Part shown: in pieces, positions 2,834 through 24,467 of the stretch
Layout of the letters: each line of letters begins with the position of its first letter
Numbering within the stretch: the stretch's first letter is position 1
From: Breznakia sp. PF5-3
GTDB taxonomy: Bacteria > Bacillota_I > Bacilli_A > Erysipelotrichales > Erysipelotrichaceae
Direction of reading: 5' to 3'
Assembly: GCF_029504745.1 (NCBI RefSeq)
Contig: NZ_JAQFIQ010000001.1
Location: 30,001-62,000, forward strand
DNA: 32,000 nt
The notes under the pieces: generated by a model
Seen by the model: the letters and a program-made list of their open reading frames with translations, nothing else
The model's database searches: none
Told to the model about the DNA's origin: nothing
Translations under genes and position numbers: made by a program

Positions 2834-2837
2834 TATG

Positions 2838-3051
2838 ATAATGCGTTGAAAAGGACTAGTAATATAGCACTTTTTTTTAAGGGAATGATAGTCATAGACT
2901 GCGAGCTATCTAAAAGAAACTATATGAATTCACCTTTGAGTGAGATTAATGACCTCCCGTTTCATACGGTTATCATGTAATAGAGTGTGTCGCAAGATGA
3001 ATTAGGATGGTACCGCGCTGTTATGCGTTCCTATACTTGTGCTTTTTTTTT
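2838..3051 (+). promoter_or_regulatory. T-box leader RNA, Phe (UUC) specifier
   Basis: Conserved T-box sequence AATTAGGATGGTACCGCG at 3000-3017. Antiterminator-like fold: TAGGA 3003-3007 pairs with TCCTA 3029-3033, with a 7-nt bulge TGGTACC. Stem I specifier loop has AGTA (2858-2861) opposite GAA-TTC-A (2926-2932), closed by ATATAG 2862-2867 pairing with CTATAT 2920-2925. A T9 tract lies at 3043-3051, directly upstream of pheS. Confidence 0.9.
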
Positions 3052-6599: not shown

Positions 6600-7532
6600 A
6601 TGATTGTTACAGTTACAATGAATCCTGCTATAGATAAGACTGCAGAAGTTGATGAATTCATAGTTGGTGGTTTAAATCGATTGCAAAATACGTTGATAAA
6701 TCCTGGTGGAAAAGGGATTAATGTATCAAAGACGATACAACATTTAGGTGGCGAAAGTATTGCGATGGGTTTTGTTGCAGGTGCTAGTGGTAGATATATT
6801 GTAGATGCTTTAAATGATTATCATATTAAAAATAAGATGGTTGAAGTAGTGGGGAATACAAGAACGAATTTAAAAATTTTAAATAGTAAAATGAAACTTA
6901 CGGAATTAAATGAAGAAGGACCAATAATTACAAAAGAAGCTTTGGATTTACTATGTAATCAAATTATTCAAGATGTTAATCAAGATGATATTGTAGTTTT
7001 ATCTGGTAGTGTTCCTTCTACTGTGACAAAAGATATTTATGCTGAAATAATTCATAAGGTAAAGCAGAAGGGTGTAAAGGTAATTTTAGATGCTGATGGC
7101 GATTTGTTTAAAAACTCAGTGGTAGAAGTTCCAACAATAATAAAGCCGAATCGATATGAACTGTGTCAATATTTTAAAATTGATGAAAATTGTAGCTTAG
7201 AAGAACTATTAAATAAAGGAAAGCTATTTTTGGATGCTGGAATAGAAATGATTGTGATTTCTATGGGAAGTGATGGAGCAGTCTTTATGAATAATGATCA
7301 TACTGCAATCGTAAAAGGATTAAAGGTAGAAGCTCATTCAAGTGTAGGAGCAGGAGATGCAATGGTTGCAGGTATTGCATATGCTTTAGAGAGGAAATTC
7401 TCGTTTGATGATCTCATTAAGCTTTCTGTTGCAACGAGTGCTGGAGCGGTGATGACGAAAGGAACACAACCAGCAGATCGAAAAATAGTAGATGATTTGA
7501 TGAAAAAAGTACAGATTCAAAAAATTAAGTAA
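6600..7532 (+). CDS. pfkB: PfkB-family sugar-phosphate kinase, most like 1-phosphofructokinase
   Basis: N-terminus MIVTVTMNPAIDKT, GGKGINVS, and C-terminal ATP-site motif GAGDAMVAGIA. RBS GAGGTG. No fruR or fruA is adjacent in this window. Confidence 0.85.
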   Translation: MIVTVTMNPAIDKTAEVDEFIVGGLNRLQNTLINPGGKGINVSKTIQHLGGESIAMGFVAGASGRYIVDALNDYHIKNKMVEVVGNTRTNLKILNSKMKLTELNEEGPIITKEALDLLCNQIIQDVNQDDIVVLSGSVPSTVTKDIYAEIIHKVKQKGVKVILDADGDLFKNSVVEVPTIIKPNRYELCQYFKIDENCSLEELLNKGKLFLDAGIEMIVISMGSDGAVFMNNDHTAIVKGLKVEAHSSVGAGDAMVAGIAYALERKFSFDDLIKLSVATSAGAVMTKGTQPADRKIVDDLMKKVQIQKIK

Positions 7533-7542
7533 AAGAAATAGT

Positions 7543-7575
7543 AAAAAGACATATATTAAATAATGTCTTTTTATT
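7543..7575. terminator. bidirectional intrinsic terminator (pfkB / MerR regulator convergent pair)
   Basis: Perfect 8-bp stem AAAGACAT (7545-7552) / ATGTCTTT (7563-7570), with an A-run on the left and a T-run on the right. Confidence 0.7.
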
Positions 7576-8392
7576 GTTGTTCAACTTGAACAGAAATTTG
7601 GATAACATATTCCTCTTCTTTGTTAGTTTGTAAATGGTTTAAGATATCATATTCGTAGAAATCACCAATAACTTTCAAATGATATTCTTTTATATAATTA
7701 CGGATAATATCATATGTTTCACTCATTGATCGATATGTTCCTTTATGTTCAATTACAAGATACATTCCAGCAGGTTGTTCTTTCACAAAAGGAATATTTT
7801 TTCGTTTGTTTAAATAAGAGAAATATGCCAAATCTTTAAATTCATTTTGCAATACACCTTGGGCATCGTATATGATTCCATAAGACAAATCATCAGAAAT
7901 ATTGTGTTGTTGACAATATGCGATATGCTTACTTAAACAATCATAATAATCTTTATCATCTTTTGGTGATGAGGTAAATGGGGTGGTAATGATATATCCC
8001 AGATTCCAATGTTCTAGTCTAGGAACAAAGTAAGATGTATGTAAAGCTTTTTTAGTGTTTTTAATAATATGATTGATAGAATTAGTGAGTTCTGTAATAT
8101 ATTGTTTTTGTTTGTTTAATATATTCTTTTTTTCTTCAAGTATTTTAATAAAATTTTCACTATTCTGATGTTCCATAAATGCTTTGATTTCTTTTAAAGA
8201 ACTACCGCTTTCTCGTAATACAGAAATCAAATCAAAAGTTGAAAATTGATCAATGGAATAATAGCGATAGCCATTATTTTTAATGATGTTTGGTTTTAAT
8301 AACCCAATTTGATCGTAATGAAAAAGAGTGTTTTTTGTTGTGTTACACAACTTTGCAAATTCTCCTGTAGTTAATAAAACCGATGAGTGCAT
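7571..8392 (-). CDS. MerR-family transcriptional regulator with C-terminal GyrI-like (BmrR/AraC-effector-binding type) domain
   Basis: N-terminal MerR HTH (TTGEFAKLCNTTKNTLFHYDQIGLLKP...GYRYY), a coiled-coil linker, and a C-terminal half of about 150 aa typical of GyrI-like ligand-binding domains. Divergent from a MATE pump. RBS AAGGAGA. Confidence 0.85.
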   Translation of the reverse strand: MHSSVLLTTGEFAKLCNTTKNTLFHYDQIGLLKPNIIKNNGYRYYSIDQFSTFDLISVLRESGSSLKEIKAFMEHQNSENFIKILEEKKNILNKQKQYITELTNSINHIIKNTKKALHTSYFVPRLEHWNLGYIITTPFTSSPKDDKDYYDCLSKHIAYCQQHNISDDLSYGIIYDAQGVLQNEFKDLAYFSYLNKRKNIPFVKEQPAGMYLVIEHKGTYRSMSETYDIIRNYIKEYHLKVIGDFYEYDILNHLQTNKEEEYVIQISVQVEQQ

Positions 8393-10987: not shown

Positions 10988-11002
10988 ATAAACAAATATA
11001 AA

Positions 11003-11206
11003 TGATAGAGGCGCAATTCGTTATTATCATATCTGGAGAAGGCATTCGTTAGACAGATGATGAGAGGAACAATTGCCGAATGTATGTTATTGGCAAATAG
11101 CATATGTGGGATTATAGTGAATAACTGTAATACTGTCTACGTGAGTAGGGGTGCTATCTTAATGATGTTTTTATGTCAATAAGAGGAATCCTTATTGGCT
11201 TTTTTT
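11003..11206 (+). promoter_or_regulatory. lysine riboswitch (L-box) with terminator expression platform
   Basis: Conserved L-box elements AGAGGCGC (11007-11014), CTGGAGAA, TTGCCGAA, GTGGGATTA and ACTGTC. A hairpin (about 11175-19999 region, CAATAAG ... CTTATTG at 11177-11197) plus a T-run (11200-11206) lies immediately upstream of lysA. Confidence 0.9.
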
Positions 11207-20477: not shown

Positions 20478-20530
20478 AAGAGAACCATGGAAAATGATAT
20501 GAAAGAAGAAAACATTTTCTTGGTTCTTTT
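20478..20530 (+). terminator. intrinsic terminator after coaD (long imperfect hairpin)
   Basis: AGAACCA (20481-20487) pairs with TGGTTCT (20521-20527), and GAAAATG pairs with CATTTTC, followed by TTTT. Confidence 0.6.
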
Positions 20531-20641
20531 TACATGCCTTTAAAATATAGGGATATAAGTAGTTTCATTTTTATATCATAACATATATAATGTAACAATA
20601 CAGAGTATCATGTGGTTATCAAAGAAAAAGGAGATAACGAT

Positions 20642-20992
20642 ATGAAAGATACTTTATTGGCAAAAGATTTATTGAATGGTGTATGGGAAGGGGATACAGC
20701 AACTGTGAAACGAGCAATTTTAAACGGTGCAGATCCAAATTGGATTTTCAATGGGTATCCGATTTTAGTGCATGCTGTTTATACACAGAATTTGGAAATT
20801 ATGAATATTTTGGTAAGTCATGGAGCAACACAACTATCAGAAGCATTGGGATTTGCTCTTGAATATGGATTGGGTAATATGGTATGGCCTCTTGCTTTTC
20901 AAGGTATTGTACCAAAGCAATATAAAGTAAATGAGAAGTTTGGTGAATTTCCATCACGTTTTGCTCCATCCAGCATTCAATATCAACATTAG
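20642..20992 (+). CDS. small ankyrin-repeat protein
   Basis: 116 aa from the ATG at 20642 (RBS AAAGGAGA). GYPILVHAVYTQNLEIMNILVSHGA fits the ANK consensus (G-TPLH-A------v--LL--GA). It is preceded by a partial repeat ending in NGADPN. The stop lies 9 nt before the WYL regulator start. Confidence 0.55.
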   Translation: MKDTLLAKDLLNGVWEGDTATVKRAILNGADPNWIFNGYPILVHAVYTQNLEIMNILVSHGATQLSEALGFALEYGLGNMVWPLAFQGIVPKQYKVNEKFGEFPSRFAPSSIQYQH

Positions 20993-21001
20993 GAGGTTAT
21001 T

Positions 21002-21946
21002 ATGAATCGAAGTGCACTAACTATAAAAATGCTGAACTATTTAAAAGCAAATGATATTGTTTCTAGAGAAGAATTAGCAATGTATTTAGAAACAAATATT
21101 CGTAATATTTCAGAATTCAAAAAAGAATTGGAAGTTGCAGGTTATCATATAGAAAGCATTAGTGGAAAATATGGAGGTTATCGGTTAGCTGAAGATAGTC
21201 TCATTCCTACGATAGCTTTAGATGATAAAGAAGTTATGGCATTAAATGATGCTTCAAAATTTTTAAAGAACCGCAACTTTCATCAATTAACTTCCTTTGA
21301 TAGTGCTTTGCTGAAGATAAAAAATAATTTACGTGATACAGCGATTAGTAGTGATATTCACTACTTGTTTTATCAAAGTGCTTCTAGTGTGACTAATGAC
21401 TATGAAAAATTACTAATGGATGCGAAAAATAGAAGGATTACAGTAGCATTATCTTATCGTAAATTAAATGCAGACAACTGGGAAAAACGATTGTTACAAC
21501 CATATGAGTTAATTTATAGTGATGAAGGGAACTACTTATTAGCTTATGATGTAACGTTAGGAAAAAAGCATATGTTTAAGACCTTTAAAATATCAGAATT
21601 AAGAATGAAAGATATCATTCTTAGTAATCGTTTTTTTGTAAGAGAACAAGATTTCAAAATAGAAGATTATATTGGAAAGCAAAGTATTCTTAAAGAAACT
21701 TATGAGGTAGAATTAGAGATTTATGGAAGTCATGCCATTTTGCTATATGAACAAAATATTGGCTTATTGGCAAATAAGAAGATGAAAGATAATGTTTTAC
21801 ATCTACAATTTGTAATGGAAAATAAAATGCGTATTCTTGAATTTATTCTTTCATTGGGAAAGGATTGTAAAATAATTTCACCAAATAGTATAAAAAATGA
21901 AGTAATTTCTATTTTAAAATATTCTTTAAGACAATATATGATATAA
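21002..21946 (+). CDS. wHTH-WYL-domain transcriptional regulator (BrxR/CapW/PafBC-like architecture)
   Basis: N-terminal HTH_11/DeoR-like wHTH (ALTIKMLNYLKANDIVSREELAMYLETNIRNISEFKKELEVAGYHIES). Central WYL-like domain (ITVALSYRKLNADNWEKRLLQPYELIYSDEGNYLLAYD...FKTFKISELR). C-terminal extension of about 90 aa. RBS AGGAGG. Confidence 0.8.
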   Translation: MNRSALTIKMLNYLKANDIVSREELAMYLETNIRNISEFKKELEVAGYHIESISGKYGGYRLAEDSLIPTIALDDKEVMALNDASKFLKNRNFHQLTSFDSALLKIKNNLRDTAISSDIHYLFYQSASSVTNDYEKLLMDAKNRRITVALSYRKLNADNWEKRLLQPYELIYSDEGNYLLAYDVTLGKKHMFKTFKISELRMKDIILSNRFFVREQDFKIEDYIGKQSILKETYEVELEIYGSHAILLYEQNIGLLANKKMKDNVLHLQFVMENKMRILEFILSLGKDCKIISPNSIKNEVISILKYSLRQYMI

Positions 21947-21967
21947 TATACTGCGTTGAGGTTAGAT

Positions 21968-23410
21968 ATGAAGCATGTTTCAGATATAAAAAAATATGAG
22001 CGATGTGAAAAGTTGCTGTGGTGTTCTAAACGACATCCACAGCCTTTTCAAGCATATATAGTATATAATGAAAATATCATTGATCTTAGTTTAAAAAGAT
22101 TACATATTGAATCCTTTTTTATGGGACAAGCGAATGATGAAAACAGCGCTTTTTTTACGCATAAAGAACAATATACAAATTTTATAAATATGCGATTCGA
22201 ATATCAAGATTTGCGAGTGAAAATACCAATCATGATAAAAGTAGATGATGGTTATCATGTATATTATCCATATGCAACATGTTTTCCTAAAGAAGGAGAA
22301 GCGCAAACCATGGCGGATAATGAGTGGGTATTAAATAATTTAGGTATTCAAGTAACTAAACGATTTTGTATTCATTTAAATTGTAATTATATTCGTCATG
22401 AAGATTTGAATCTTGAAGAATTACTATTGGTTCAGGATTTTTTATTCAACGATCGTAATCGTCCAGCAAGTAAGATTGATGAGCTTGTGAAAGCAAAAGG
22501 AAGAGATTTAACACCAATTCTTTCGAAGATGGATGAGGTATTGAAAAAAGATGAAATCATAAAGCCACGTACGAATATATGTACAAGAAGAAATAAGTGT
22601 ATGTATTTTGATTATTGTTTTGAAGAAAAGAAGGATACAAGTATTTTTCATCTTGTATCTTCTGCGAAGAAATTTGAATTATATGAACAGGGAATCAAAA
22701 CGATTGATGAACTTGATTTTGATTGTATAGAAGGGACAAGACATCAATTTGCACAATATATGGCTGCGAAGAAAAATGCATTATTTTTTGATGGATTAGC
22801 AGTTGAAGGTTTTTTTAAACAGGTGACTTATCCGATATCGTATTTGGATTTTGAATGGGAAACATTTGCGTTTCCGCCATATGAAAATATGCATCCATAT
22901 GATGTATTAACTTTTCAATATTCTTTGCATATTGAACATCAAGATGGGGGATTAAAGCATAAAGAGTTTTTGGGCAAGAATGATTGTCGCATTGACTTTA
23001 TAGAGAAGCTTATTGAAGATATACCAAAACAGGGAAGTATTATCTGCTACAATGTAGAAGGTGCTGAAAAATTAAGGTTAAAACAATTAGCTAAACAATT
23101 TCCACAATATGAGAAGCCATTAAAGGCAATCTGGGAGCGAATGGTAGATTTAGCAACTCCATTTAGCTCGGGGCTTATTTACGACAATCAAATGGCTGGG
23201 ATGTACTCACTGAAGAAATTGGTTTCTATTTTTACGGATTATTCATATGATGATTTAGAAATATCTCATGGAATGGACGCAGTTAGGAAATATGTGAATC
23301 TTCAAAATGATGCAGATCCAGAAATTATCGATAGTTTATTGAAATACTGTGCTATGGATACCTATGCTATGTATCTGATTTATCATTGGATTTTAGAGCA
23401 ACTTAAGTAA
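21968..23410 (+). CDS. DUF2779-like protein: Cas4/RecB-like Cys-cluster N-terminal half plus DEDD-type exonuclease-like C-terminal half
   Basis: ATG at 21968 is preceded by GAGGT. N-terminal SDIKKYERCEKLLW plus CTRRNKCMYFDYC (nt 22580-22618) give a 1+3 Cys pattern like Cas4/AddB Fe-S nucleases. C-terminal YLDFEWET (DxE, nt 22847-22855), YNVEGAEKLRL, MYSLKKLV and YCAMDTYAMY (nt 23345-23362) resemble DnaQ-like exonuclease motifs, as I recall them for DUF2779 proteins. Confidence 0.7.
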   Translation: MKHVSDIKKYERCEKLLWCSKRHPQPFQAYIVYNENIIDLSLKRLHIESFFMGQANDENSAFFTHKEQYTNFINMRFEYQDLRVKIPIMIKVDDGYHVYYPYATCFPKEGEAQTMADNEWVLNNLGIQVTKRFCIHLNCNYIRHEDLNLEELLLVQDFLFNDRNRPASKIDELVKAKGRDLTPILSKMDEVLKKDEIIKPRTNICTRRNKCMYFDYCFEEKKDTSIFHLVSSAKKFELYEQGIKTIDELDFDCIEGTRHQFAQYMAAKKNALFFDGLAVEGFFKQVTYPISYLDFEWETFAFPPYENMHPYDVLTFQYSLHIEHQDGGLKHKEFLGKNDCRIDFIEKLIEDIPKQGSIICYNVEGAEKLRLKQLAKQFPQYEKPLKAIWERMVDLATPFSSGLIYDNQMAGMYSLKKLVSIFTDYSYDDLEISHGMDAVRKYVNLQNDADPEIIDSLLKYCAMDTYAMYLIYHWILEQLK

Positions 23411-23437
23411 AGATATGAAAATATCTTTTTCTTTTTT
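23410..23437 (+). terminator. weak intrinsic terminator candidate after the DUF2779-like gene
   Basis: AAGATAT-GAAA-ATATCTT followed by TTTTCTTTTTT. The stem is only 7 AT-rich bp, so read-through into the next gene is plausible. Confidence 0.35.
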
Positions 23438-23498
23438 AGAGTGTGTATTTTAAACGTGTTTTTATGTGAATTATGCTATAATATTTTAGAGGTGAAAG

Positions 23499-24467
23499 AT
23501 GCCAAATTTAATAACGCATACAATCTTTTGTGAAGAAGTATATAAAAATATTAGTAATGAAAAATATAAATCAATTATTAAGAATAACCGAAAAGAATAT
23601 CTAATTGGTACCAATGGACCGGATTATTTGTTTTTTCATGGTGCATTTCCAATTTATAAGAAACAAGATATGACAATATCTGATATTGGTACGAAATTAC
23701 ATCGCAAAAAAATCAATGCATTTTATAAGAGTGCAATAAAAACTTATCGTGCTCAAAAATCTGGATATGTAAAGGATGCTATGGCTTCCTATATTATAGG
23801 GCATTATTTACATTGGCAATTGGATAGTATTATGCATCCATATGTTGTTTATTTTACTGGATTTGGTGGAGTGAATAATAAAATGTATCATCATCGTTTT
23901 GAATCAATGATGGACACGATAAATTTGAAAAATTATCGTAATGAAACAATTAAAACGTATGAAACTTACAAACTATGTAAACGTAGTAAGTACTCTGTTA
24001 AAGCTATTAGCAATGTTTATATTCCAGCTGTCAAAGAATGTTTTGATATCGAACTTGATCAAGATATCATTAAACAAGCATTGATGGATTGGGAAAAAGC
24101 ACAACGATACTTATACGACCCTAAGAAAGTTAAATATAGGTTATTGAAGTTTGTAGAGTTTATAACAAGAAAACCAGGATTGAGTGGAAATGTAGTTACA
24201 CCTGATATTGATATACGCTATGATGTGATGAATGAAGAACATCGTCAATGGAAACATCCTTGTACTGGTGAGATATCAACAGAAAGTGAAGATGATTTAT
24301 TTCAAAAAGCTATTGAAAATGCAAATATTGGTTTGGCGTATTTGTTTGATGCATTGGACAAAAAGCCGATGAAACCTCTTTTGGATTTTATTGATAATAA
24401 ATCATATTCTAATGGCATTAAAGGAAAAATGCCACGATTATATCAAGATGTTATTTATGATAAATAA
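23499..24467 (+). CDS. zinc-dependent phospholipase C-like family protein
   Basis: N-terminus MPNLITHTIF, GTNGPDYLFF, and His/Asp-rich HYLHWQLDSIMHPYV match the pattern I associate with bacterial 'zinc dependent phospholipase C family' proteins. RBS GAGGTG. No signal peptide. Confidence 0.6.
   Translation: MPNLITHTIFCEEVYKNISNEKYKSIIKNNRKEYLIGTNGPDYLFFHGAFPIYKKQDMTISDIGTKLHRKKINAFYKSAIKTYRAQKSGYVKDAMASYIIGHYLHWQLDSIMHPYVVYFTGFGGVNNKMYHHRFESMMDTINLKNYRNETIKTYETYKLCKRSKYSVKAISNVYIPAVKECFDIELDQDIIKQALMDWEKAQRYLYDPKKVKYRLLKFVEFITRKPGLSGNVVTPDIDIRYDVMNEEHRQWKHPCTGEISTESEDDLFQKAIENANIGLAYLFDALDKKPMKPLLDFIDNKSYSNGIKGKMPRLYQDVIYDK

Follow-up and report, generated by a model that had tools for sequence, protein, structure and literature searches.

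DriD of Caulobacter crescentus is a homodimeric wHTH-3HB-WYL-WCX activator of an SOS-independent DNA-damage response and carries an NYL motif (PMC9186387). Its site, ATACGAC-N7-GTCGTAT, overlies the -35 position and keeps a constant distance to the -10 element, in promoters without a -35 element (PMC13004042). PafBC of mycobacteria and Arthrobacter is a WYL activator of a LexA-independent DNA-damage regulon and is itself activated by single-stranded DNA (ssDNA), while CapW and BrxR are repressors of CBASS and BREX systems, respectively. The ligand of CapW was shown to be ssDNA (PMC11662680), and ssDNA sensing has been reported for both activator-type and repressor-type WYL factors (PMC11662680, PMC9186387). 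The DUF2779 protein has no assigned function, as a preliminary description of the locus studied here had stated, although its two-domain architecture had already been described computationally (PMC3985635; PMC13621843), and DUF2779 is quasi-essential in the minimal cell JCVI-syn3.0 (PMC13621843).

Here we describe an operon in which an ankyrin gene, a WYL regulator gene and a DUF2779 gene follow one another in a 32-kb window (the whole stretch of 32,000 nucleotides analyzed) from Breznakia sp., order Erysipelotrichales. On balance, we favor the reading that this ank-wyl-duf2779 operon is autoregulated and answers ssDNA arising from DNA damage or replication stress, with the DUF2779 protein serving as a 3'-5' exonuclease. 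The observations of the preliminary description were partly confirmed and its interpretation is partly supported.

Layout and inheritance of the operon

The operon comprises three real open reading frames on the same (+) strand, encoding a small ankyrin-repeat protein (20642-20992), a wHTH-WYL-WCX regulator (21002-21946) and the DUF2779 protein (21968-23410), and the tight packing described earlier holds, with gaps of 9 and 21 nt. Its upstream boundary is the coaD intrinsic terminator (20478-20532, + strand; -16.7 kcal/mol, z -4.5, followed by a T-run), which had been correctly recognized. The weak hairpin noted at the 3' end is likewise present as an AT-rich stem-loop with a T-run (23409-23437, + strand, stem-loop 23409-23428; centroid -5.7 kcal/mol, z -1.4), probably a leaky terminator that ends the operon in the Breznakia genome. 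Beyond it lies a gene for a Zn-dependent protein of the PLC/P1-nuclease superfamily with invariant His/Asp/Glu residues (23499-24467, + strand; Pfam Zn_dep_PLPC, 39.6 bits), which in the window has a promoter of its own (TGcTATAAT, 23474-23482). A Zn_dep_PLPC gene stands directly 3' of DUF2779 in 37 of 75 loci, often with an overlap of 4-8 nt, and is translationally coupled to DUF2779 in many relatives.

The adjacency of regulator and DUF2779 gene, on which the earlier proposal was built, proved to be inherited. Among 73 species-level loci with enough upstream sequence, a WYL gene precedes DUF2779 on the same strand in 64 (within 150 nt in 56), and the further a species' DUF2779 protein has diverged from that of the window, the further its WYL protein tends to have diverged too (Spearman 0.81, n = 66). 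The ank gene adjoins the WYL gene on the upstream side in 42 loci. The gene order FtsW-RsmD-CoaD-Ank-WYL-DUF2779-PLPC is common to Breznakia species and one divergent lineage and, with HPF at its end, is the ancestral order in Breznakia and this more distant lineage, so the block does not interrupt a run of housekeeping genes as had been supposed. Across the order the operon keeps a fixed syntenic core-genome position among FtsW, RsmD, CoaD and HPF, with one copy per locus. The impression that it is more AT-rich was also not borne out: its GC content of 30.4%, compared with 32.0 ± 1.3% in windows of the same size (11.8% of which are equally low), is ordinary and its composition not unusual.

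In IMG/VR (2.9 million viral contigs), neither the DUF2779 clade nor the WYL subfamily nor the operator had a relative, tblastn against 50,697 phage records returned no match, and PADLOC-DB 2.0 gave no effector or system match beyond a generic WYL model (8.5e-24 with the regulator) and a sub-threshold Cas4 match of the DUF2779 protein (E 0.0023). Given the WYL-DUF2779 linkage, the housekeeping neighbors, the ordinary GC content and the lack of viral relatives in these searches, the operon is an old, vertically inherited chromosomal unit and not an inserted island.

The operon is confined to Erysipelotrichales and their close relatives, and only the Erysipelotrichales clade of DUF2779 is linked to a WYL regulator; elsewhere DUF2779 genes have housekeeping or repair genes around them and no WYL gene, and at a few loci distant members are neighbored by XseA, SSB or OGG. 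The anticipated association of DUF2779 with WYL regulators is found in this clade, and no PADLOC system was detected in the operon. Other repair neighbors, too, were seen at few loci. In L002, the annotated one among three loci (L002, L003 and L005) with a WYL-DUF2779 gap of ~1 kb, the operon contains or adjoins PolC and a gene of the LexA-like HTH_3-S24 type, and in L021 RecN adjoins DUF2779. Some Campylobacterota plasmids carry distant DUF2779 genes.

The encoded proteins

The regulator (314 aa) was identified from the outset as a wHTH-WYL protein, and it matches Pfam WYL (PF13280) with 31.2 bits against a cut-off of 21.8 and WCX (PF25583) with 24.3 bits, just above the cut-off of 23.9, the latter in agreement with full-length Foldseek alignments to DriD and PafB. 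At the N terminus, a Rrf2 HTH match of 23 bits is below cut-off, and orthologs give HTH_11/Rrf2 matches. In a moderately confident structure model (pLDDT 80.7, pTM 0.39), the wHTH is formed by helices 3-16, 22-29 and 33-45 with a beta wing at 50-62, and the linker by predicted helices 75-90, 96-110 and 129-144, with residues 111-126 disordered (pLDDT < 50). A profile search of the PDB ranked PafB (1.3e-9) and DriD (about 1e-6) above BrxR (5e-4) and CapW (0.02), and Foldseek placed DriD (2.4e-14) and PafB (8e-14) above CapW (3.5e-7) and BrxR (2e-6). The NYL motif is found at N177-Y178-L179 (191-193 in DriD), the RWHVR motif described for CapW/BrxR repressors is absent from the sequence, and Y152, R163 and Y178 align with the DriD ssDNA contacts Y168, R178 and Y192. 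Sequence profile, predicted fold and NYL motif all bring the regulator nearest to DriD and PafBC, DNA-damage activators that sense ssDNA, rather than to the defense repressors BrxR and CapW, and it probably senses ssDNA as well.

The DUF2779 protein, estimated earlier at about 480 aa, has exactly that length when started at the ATG at 21968, the start indicated by ortholog alignment and a GAGG Shine-Dalgarno. An N-terminal Cas4-like Fe-S domain is predicted to be followed by a C-terminal DEDDy 3'-5' exonuclease domain. The DUF2779 match (PF11074, residues 292-414) has an E value of 4e-40 (137.3 bits against a cut-off of 23.3), and an RNase_H_2/DEDD region scores 29.6 bits against a cut-off of 22. 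In line with the Cas4 and DnaQ folds expected earlier, the best PDB matches of the confident structure model (pLDDT 91.5) are Cas4 (4r5q) and exonuclease domains of family-B polymerases. For the N-terminal half, 4r5q is the top fold match with a probability of 1.00, but with an E value of 2e-3 and low TM-scores. The C-terminal domain is structurally closest to DNA exonucleases, namely family-B polymerase proofreading domains and TREX1/2.

The protein had been taken for a dual nuclease with a Cas4/RecB-like Fe-S region and a DnaQ-like region, a label that describes its architecture and not its chemistry, because the PD-(D/E)xK catalytic residues are missing. Cysteines C13, C205, C211 and C217, the predicted Fe-S cluster ligands, do not vary within the clade and reach 95-98% conservation across the family (151 sequences). 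The DEDDy residues D294/E296 (ExoI), E367 and D394 (ExoII) and Y460/D464 (ExoIII) are conserved at 99-100% in 151 sequences, with Glu instead of Asp as the ExoII acidic residue; the domain is intact by its residues and is a predicted 3'-5' exonuclease. The Cas4-like triad, in contrast, reads P87/Y100/Y102 in the window protein, and each of the 21 clade members has P/[FY]/x at these positions; D/E/K, the triad of other DUF2779 proteins, is present in 66 of 130 family representatives. Within the clade D6, E35 and E109 never vary, and the Cas4-like domain may have a relocated active site despite the lost canonical triad. RecC contains an inactivated nuclease-like domain, and by analogy the Cas4-like domain may serve only DNA binding.

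The first gene encodes a protein of 116 aa whose own Pfam Ank_2 match, at 24.5 bits, is below cut-off. Its earlier assignment as a small ankyrin protein is upheld by its orthologs, 22 of 28 of which match Ank_2, and by an ortholog profile that retrieves ankyrin structures (E 1.8e-15). The C-terminal tail, GIVPK...FG.YPSRFAP, is conserved. This protein is likely a protein-binding modulator.

Operator and promoter

A 25-bp candidate palindromic operator, ATCATAACAT-ATATA-ATGTAACAAT (20575-20599; 7-N7-7 core 20577-20597), precedes ank. Its family has the consensus ATTGTwACAT-N5-ATGTwACAAT, and the conserved palindrome occupies the position expected for a -35 element. Scanned with a PWM of the palindrome, the 32-kb window contains this site as its sole match of at least 10 bits (23.4 bits), and 1.16 Mb of orthologous loci contain 39 matches of at least 15 bits, 34 of them at an operon head. 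A relaxed form was found at about 45 Ank-headed operons, and about 24 of the 38 exact matches in metagenomes are at operon heads. Three Merdibacter species have a second copy ahead of a 70-aa ORF; otherwise, strong copies were confined to operon heads in the 1.16 Mb of loci and the metagenomes, and no wider regulon was found there. As strong copies occur only at the operon head, the circuit appears to be local, unlike the multi-gene regulons of DriD and PafBC.

The operator suggested earlier, an inverted repeat GATATAA/TTATATC, does exist, but the window contains 140 perfect 7-bp inverted repeats with spacers of 3-20 nt; at chance level and absent from orthologous promoters, this candidate was rejected. 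The TATAAT at 20586-20591, previously read as the -10 element, makes the spacer region of the conserved palindrome in the window resemble a -10, and this hexamer does not hold to TAnnnT across promoters (AATAAT, AATGAT and GATAGT also occur). The positionally invariant -10 element is TATCAT (20606-20611, + strand), 8 nt past the operator core, and every one of the 33 operon-head sites has a TAnnnT hexamer at exactly this spacing. A consensus promoter scan detected no canonical sigma-70 promoter at the operon head, no -35 consensus lies upstream of the -10, and roughly a third of the operon promoters have a TGn extended -10. The distance from DriD box to -10 is the same 8 nt by our own reading of the oligonucleotides printed in PMC13004042, where the figure is not stated. 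Judged by its sequence, the operon promoter has the layout of DriD-activated promoters, and the WYL protein presumably binds the palindrome. Downstream of the -10, a predicted 5'-UTR stem-loop surrounds the Shine-Dalgarno (20612-20641, + strand; arms 20615-20620/20633-20638; -5.7 kcal/mol, z -4.6), and 20 of 30 distinct orthologous UTRs have an equivalent hairpin whose arms differ in sequence.

The proposed circuit and known systems

In the circuit that we favor, the regulator would take up ssDNA through its WYL domain as a wHTH-WYL-WCX dimer of the DriD/PafBC class, and would then bind the 7-N7-7 palindrome, which takes the -35 position and is separated by 8 nt from the invariant -10 downstream, to aid initiation by RNA polymerase at a -35-less promoter in a DriD-like manner. 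Induction would yield more regulator, ankyrin protein and DUF2779 protein. The triad-less Cas4/AddB-like domain would probably only hold DNA ends or ssDNA, and the DEDDy domain would be the working 3'-5' exonuclease, trimming 3' ssDNA or damaged ends and so removing the inducing signal and closing a feedback loop. A part may also fall to the PLC/P1-like zinc hydrolase, whose gene joins the operon in many relatives.

It is possible, if rather doubtful, that the same operon answers the same signal through a CapW/BrxR-style repressor, in which case the WYL protein would sit on the palindrome, mask the -10-like spacer hexamer or the -35 and be freed by ssDNA, with the same outcome, induction. BrxR and CapW typically act at palindromes of 20-30 bp, and a local autoregulated circuit resembles theirs and not a broad regulon. 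Repression by occlusion is conceivable because a perfect TATAAT fills the spacer in the window copy and about a third of the -10 elements bear a TGn extension, which could permit activator-independent transcription. The spacer hexamer nevertheless varies among orthologous promoters, while the box geometry and the fixed spacing to an invariant TAnnnT match DriD promoters. In the protein comparisons, DriD and PafB outrank CapW and BrxR by five to eight orders of magnitude in sequence profile and fold, the regulator has NYL and not the RWHVR said to be conserved in the repressors, and its linker is predicted to contain three helices in the moderate-confidence model.

The preliminary description had offered defense and DNA damage as two options for an inducible module. 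The damage option fits, since the regulator is closest to DriD/PafBC and the promoter has the DriD-type layout (PMC13004042), whereas an anti-phage module, its nuclease effector kept silent by the WYL regulator until infection, is improbable. Many wHTH-WYL-WCX regulators do govern defense operons, PADLOC WYL models match this one, a heading on 'immunity connections' covers DUF2779 in PMC13621843, and there are the distant plasmid-borne genes of Campylobacterota. Yet the single-copy, syntenic core position across the order, the ordinary GC content, the PADLOC result for effectors and systems, and the IMG/VR and phage-record searches all speak against defense, as do a regulator nearer to damage activators than to defense repressors, the loss of the endonuclease-type site, and the housekeeping or repair surroundings, free of WYL genes, of DUF2779 outside the clade. 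The operon has the appearance of a small DNA-damage circuit, not of a phage-defense island. We also consider it unlikely that DUF2779 is a constitutive housekeeping enzyme, such as a 3'-5' exoribonuclease or a replication-associated exonuclease, with WYL sensing RNA or another ligand unrelated to damage. Quasi-essentiality in JCVI-syn3.0 would also fit such a role, as would the impairment of a Mycoplasma bovis DUF2779 transposon mutant in cell culture, the translation/RNA neighbors RsmD, HPF (adjacent even in a distant relative) and RNase J, and the Sm-like fold of WYL domains, first proposed as RNA binders. A dedicated ligand-sensing regulator and a -35-less promoter, however, argue for conditional and not constitutive expression; DriD binds ssDNA, but not ssRNA saturably, and the C-terminal domain most resembles DNA exonucleases.

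Compared with known systems, the regulator shares with DriD, its best Foldseek match, the domain order and a degenerate NYL motif, and the operon shares a 7-N7-7 pseudo-palindromic box over the -35 position of a promoter without a -35, fixed in its distance to the -10, and, as we infer, autoregulation. The DriD regulon also includes nucleases (recJ, bapE). Activation and ssDNA binding are assigned here by analogy with DriD. Unlike DriD, the regulator has only 14-17% sequence identity to it, the box is TGTwACA and not ATACGAC, no multi-gene regulon was detected in the scan of operon loci and metagenomes, and the target is a putative DUF2779 exonuclease with a co-transcribed ankyrin protein in a low-GC Bacillota host. 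PafB, the best PDB sequence-profile match, has the same wHTH-WYL-WCX organization, but PafBC is a heterodimer or a fusion of both halves, needs RNA polymerase for DNA binding, recognizes a short non-palindromic motif at about -26 and controls about 150 genes, in contrast to a single gene, a palindromic site and a local target here. CapW and BrxR share the wHTH-WYL-WCX homodimer architecture, a palindromic operator before their own operon and a local circuit, although their sequence and fold similarity to the regulator is much weaker, RWHVR is missing, and the operon, in the core genome and not in an island, has no downstream defense genes. The DUF2779 protein has the four-cysteine pattern of the Cas4/AddB/RecB family (one N-terminal Cys plus C-x5-C-x5-C), but differs in having no catalytic D, E and K, a DEDDy fusion, no helicase partner and no CRISPR context. 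With MMSYN1_0389 of JCVI-syn3.0, a member of the same family, it shares the two-domain architecture and an intact DEDDy set with the ExoIII tyrosine; MMSYN1_0389 is reported with D/E/K but two of the four cysteines, whereas the Erysipelotrichales clade has four cysteines and no D/E/K. The operon offers a lead on a family of genes close to essential in a minimal synthetic cell.

Operon layout and ancestry

Three tightly packed genes on the same strand, with gaps of 9 and 21 nt, were present between the strong coaD intrinsic terminator (20478–20532; −16.7 kcal/mol, z −4.5) and a weak hairpin followed by a T-run (23409–23437), which form the 5′ and 3′ boundaries of the block, as the preliminary description had stated. 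The genes encode an ankyrin-repeat protein (ank, 20642–20992, 116 aa), a wHTH-WYL-WCX regulator (wyl, 21002–21946, 314 aa) and a DUF2779 protein (PF11074; duf2779, 21968–23410, 480 aa). The ankyrin protein alone fell just short of the Pfam Ank_2 cut-off; an Ank_2 match was found in 22 of 28 orthologs, and the ortholog profile matched ankyrin and DARPin structures with E-values down to 1.8e-15. The rest of the window is housekeeping, including pheST behind a T-box leader upstream of pheS (2837–3035; 93.6 bits, barely reaching the gathering score), a lysine riboswitch (10998–11164; 85.6 bits) upstream of a lysA-dapF-dapA-dapB-dapH cluster, RNase J, def, ftsW, rsmD, coaD, hpf and others. Two impressions that had suggested an insertion were not borne out. 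The GC content of the block (30.4%) lies inside the normal range of the window, so a higher AT content is not significant, and the block does not interrupt its housekeeping surroundings, as the order FtsW-RsmD-CoaD-Ank-WYL-DUF2779-PLPC(-HPF) is common to Breznakia species and a divergent metagenomic lineage.

Linkage was assessed by scanning one genome per GTDB species, which gave 80 loci with DUF2779 identities of 36–72%, all from Erysipelotrichales except a few records titled Bacteroidota or unclassified. For 73 loci the sequence reaches 1.5 kb or more upstream; among them, a WYL gene lay on the same strand within 150 nt upstream of DUF2779 in 56 and at 0.35–1 kb, with something inserted between, in 8 more; the other 9 had no WYL gene upstream. 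The ankyrin gene was directly 5′ of the WYL gene in 42 loci. Similarities of the DUF2779 and WYL proteins to those of the window decay in parallel across species (Spearman 0.81, n = 66). The ank-wyl-duf2779 block is an old operon and not an island.

The inserted segments differ between loci. In L002, a LexA-like gene (HTH_3 plus Peptidase_S24; 6979–7608, minus strand) is placed divergently between WYL and DUF2779, and PolC is immediately 5′ of the WYL gene; in L003 and L005 the WYL–DUF2779 gap is of the same size (~1 kb). The gap in L031 holds an unrelated 235-aa ORF, and that in L017 contained no ORF of at least 70 aa and no Rfam match. RecN adjoins DUF2779 in L021, a locus without a WYL gene. 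The DUF2779 profile matches ~6,000 clusters at 50% identity, and DUF2779 genes outside the Erysipelotrichales clade have no WYL neighbor, being surrounded by housekeeping or repair genes such as those for XseA, SSB, OGG and HPF. The LexA-like/PolC, RecN and XseA/SSB/OGG neighbors, each from few loci, weakly back a role in DNA damage. A more distant DUF2779 protein (P0229, L083:6001–8243) with a degenerate nuclease triad and without the first conserved cysteine has no WYL gene and is still followed by hpf, so the DUF2779–HPF adjacency may predate the WYL linkage.

Mobility of the clade operon was considered and rejected. A search of 2.9 million viral contigs found no clade DUF2779, WYL-subfamily member or operator, tblastn against 50,697 phage records gave 0 matches, and only distant DUF2779 relatives (27–31% identity) were found on plasmids (30 of 72,556). 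These plasmids are mostly from Campylobacterota (Arcobacter, Aliarcobacter and Helicobacter) and mostly non-mobilizable, and their DUF2779 copies are the sole mobile-element association seen for the family.

The DUF2779 protein and its zinc-hydrolase neighbor

The DUF2779 protein, which is 100% identical in sequence to a Breznakia sp. PF5-3 record, matched its Pfam family with an E-value of 4e-40 and has an RNase-H-like/DEDD C-terminal half. Its profile gave nothing useful against the sequences of solved structures. The structure model was confident (pLDDT 91.5). In the PDB, its N-terminal part was closest in fold to Cas4 (4r5q) and its C-terminal part to the exonuclease domains of family-B polymerases and to TREX1/2, with probability 1.0 and weak E-values. 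This Cas4-like plus DEDD architecture has been described computationally (PMC3985635; PMC13621843), and DUF2779 is quasi-essential in the minimal synthetic cell JCVI-syn3.0 (PMC13621843).

Over 151 family members, the cysteines C13, C205, C211 and C217 were 95–98% conserved and the DEDDy residues D294, E296, E367, D394, Y460 and D464 were 99–100% conserved. The PD-(D/E)xK triad reads D/E/K in 66 of 130 representatives, which are distant members, and in 0 of 21 aligned members of the clade, where the positions are occupied by P87, F/Y100 and Y/F102; the alignment looks sound because the segments agree in their beta-hairpin pattern. All but one of the sampled representatives with a degenerate triad have a WYL gene upstream, and the sampled D/E/K representatives have none. 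The protein had been described as dual-nuclease-like, which holds for the two-domain architecture and the retained DEDDy residues but not for the Cas4-like site, whose triad is replaced in the clade. Because the cysteines and DEDDy residues are kept while the triad is lost, the protein is best described, from its sequence, as a putative Fe–S DNA-binding pseudo-nuclease module fused to a predicted active 3′–5′ exonuclease.

Directly 3′ of DUF2779 in 37 of 75 loci, and 1–6 kb downstream in 20 more, is a gene for a zinc-dependent PLC/P1-nuclease-superfamily protein (Zn_dep_PLPC; 23499–24467 in the window). Its start overlaps the DUF2779 stop codon by 4–8 nt in many species (L042, L044, L047 and others), which suggests translational coupling; the window gene has its own TGcTATAAT promoter at 23474–23482. 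Neither the single sequence nor the profile gave a useful sequence match in the PDB. The invariant residues H7, D42, H68, H105, D109, H113, H131 and E135 are those expected of a trinuclear-zinc PLC/P1-nuclease-type site, and the protein may be a partner nuclease.

Operator and promoter at the operon head

Comparison of the upstream regions revealed a palindrome with the consensus ATTGTwACAT-N5-ATGTwACAAT. The window copy, ATCATAACATATATAATGTAACAAT (20575–20599), is the sole match scoring 10 bits or more in the 32 kb. The orthologous loci, 1.16 Mb in all, contain 39 matches scoring 15 bits or more, of which 34 are at the operon head; the palindrome stays there even if the ankyrin gene has become detached from the WYL gene. 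About 45 operons headed by the ankyrin gene, among them the Holdemanella and Absicoccus operons, contain the palindrome in a relaxed form, [GT]ACAT-N5-ATGT[AC]. The inverted repeat GATATAA/TTATATC (20552–20558/20571–20577), which the preliminary description had put forward as the operator, exists, but the window contains 140 such 7-bp repeats, as expected by chance, and it is absent from orthologous promoters.

A consensus scan of the operon head found no canonical promoter. A TAnnnT hexamer lies exactly 8 nt after the 21-bp (7-N7-7) core of the palindrome at 33 of 33 sites (TATCAT, 20606–20611, in the window), and a −35 element at a 17-nt spacer would sit within the palindrome, where there is nothing TTGACA-like. 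Right after the −10 element, and therefore at the extreme 5′ end of the mRNA, begins a stem-loop (20612–20641; z −4.6) that encloses or pairs with the Shine–Dalgarno sequence of the ankyrin gene. Equivalent hairpins with differing arm sequences were found in 20 of 30 distinct orthologous leaders, and the stem-loop could make the mRNA more stable or dampen its translation.

When metagenomes were scanned for exact matches to the operator-plus-−10 pattern, 38 loci were recovered, about 24 of them at Ank-WYL-DUF2779 heads and the remainder unrelated. A wider regulon was not adopted, as the matches off operon heads precede unrelated or non-coding sequence. Merdibacter species have a second operator copy, ATTGTGACA-N7-TGTCACAAT, downstream of hpf (L036:14226–14250, L038:15086–15110 and L052:14232–14256); it precedes a 70-aa ORF upstream of spoIIGA-sigE-like genes in L036 and an 87-aa ORF in L038, both without a Pfam match, and the small ORF is a possible extra regulon member. 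Two of the metagenome contigs matched off operon heads (L114 and L118) encode HTH proteins, 314 and 318 aa long, that are related to each other and have no relation to the operon. In each, a very similar palindrome, TTGTAACAT-N5-ATGTTACAA, lies 15–17 nt before the ORF, and another family of regulators may use it as an operator.

Proposed circuit and regulator class

Factors of the wHTH-WYL-WCX type include PafBC and DriD, which are activators of SOS-independent DNA-damage responses, and CapW and BrxR, which repress defence operons; ssDNA is sensed by both groups (PMC11662680, PMC9186387, PMC13004042). We lean, by a modest degree, toward a circuit in which the WYL regulator would sense ssDNA arising from damage or replication stress and, at the palindrome, induce ank-wyl-duf2779, whose exonuclease would process 3′ ssDNA or ends and thereby remove the inducing signal. 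The same circuit run by a CapW-like repressor is considerably less probable; activator and repressor modes alike predict induction by ssDNA, and the sequence and structure comparisons of the regulator place CapW and BrxR behind PafB and DriD. A phage-defence module, one of the two roles originally envisaged, is improbable. What the preliminary description said would refute its proposal was found only in part: the homologs sit in conserved core positions without neighboring defence islands, but their linkage to a WYL regulator is strong. Similarly small odds attach to an enzyme of housekeeping or RNA processing that is expressed constitutively, the regulator then having an unrelated ligand.

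Neither WYL regulators nor the architecture of DUF2779 is new; in the searchable literature we found no account of the Ank-WYL-DUF2779(-PLC-like) operon that spans the order, of its promoter of DriD type or of the clade-specific loss of the Cas4-like triad. As a tentative overall reading, ssDNA might be monitored in Erysipelotrichales by a circuit devoted to that task and independent of the SOS response; such a circuit would apparently be the first of the DriD-like kind in Bacillota. In it, a WYL activator would drive an Fe–S half-dead nuclease that removes the inducing ssDNA with its only working activity, the 3′–5′ exonuclease, with the ankyrin protein and the PLC/P1-like zinc hydrolase as partners. 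If true, DUF2779, which is without an assigned function in JCVI-syn3.0, would be an ssDNA- or DNA-end-processing enzyme, and the operon would carry DriD/PafBC-type damage sensing into low-GC Gram-positive gut bacteria. The main value is a pointer to the function of a widespread family with quasi-essential status in a minimal cell. The tie to an ssDNA-sensing-type regulator in one lineage provides a hypothesis, concrete and testable, of what this uncharacterized family does. One operator with one operon also offers a simple system for studying WYL activation, and the clade-wide loss of the triad with retention of the Fe–S cysteines is a natural experiment on the non-cutting role of the Cas4-like domain.

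The regulator matched Pfam WYL (31.2 bits) and WCX (24.3 bits) and the PADLOC WYL profile (8.5e-24). Its single sequence retrieved nothing useful from solved structures, whereas a profile of 31 orthologs matched PafB (1.3e-9), PafBC (2e-8), DriD (about 1e-6), BrxR (5e-4) and CapW (0.02) in the PDB. The AlphaFold model (pLDDT 80.7) was closest to DriD (2.4e-14) and PafB (8e-14), followed by CapW (3.5e-7) and BrxR (2e-6). The regulator shares the degenerate NYL motif of DriD (N177-Y178-L179) and lacks the RWHVR motif of CapW and BrxR, and its Y152, R163 and Y178 align opposite the DriD ssDNA contacts Y168, R178 and Y192. The combination of profile, fold, NYL motif, contact alignment, box geometry and spacing leads us to favor a DriD-like activator, as predicted from sequence and model. 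The DriD site, ATACGAC-N7-GTCGTAT, overlies the −35 position of promoters that have no recognizable −35 element, and its distance from the −10 element does not vary (PMC13004042); like the operon palindrome it is a 7-N7-7 box, and that distance, unstated in that paper and read from the oligonucleotides printed there, including the 'optimised −35' variant, is 8 nt, as here.
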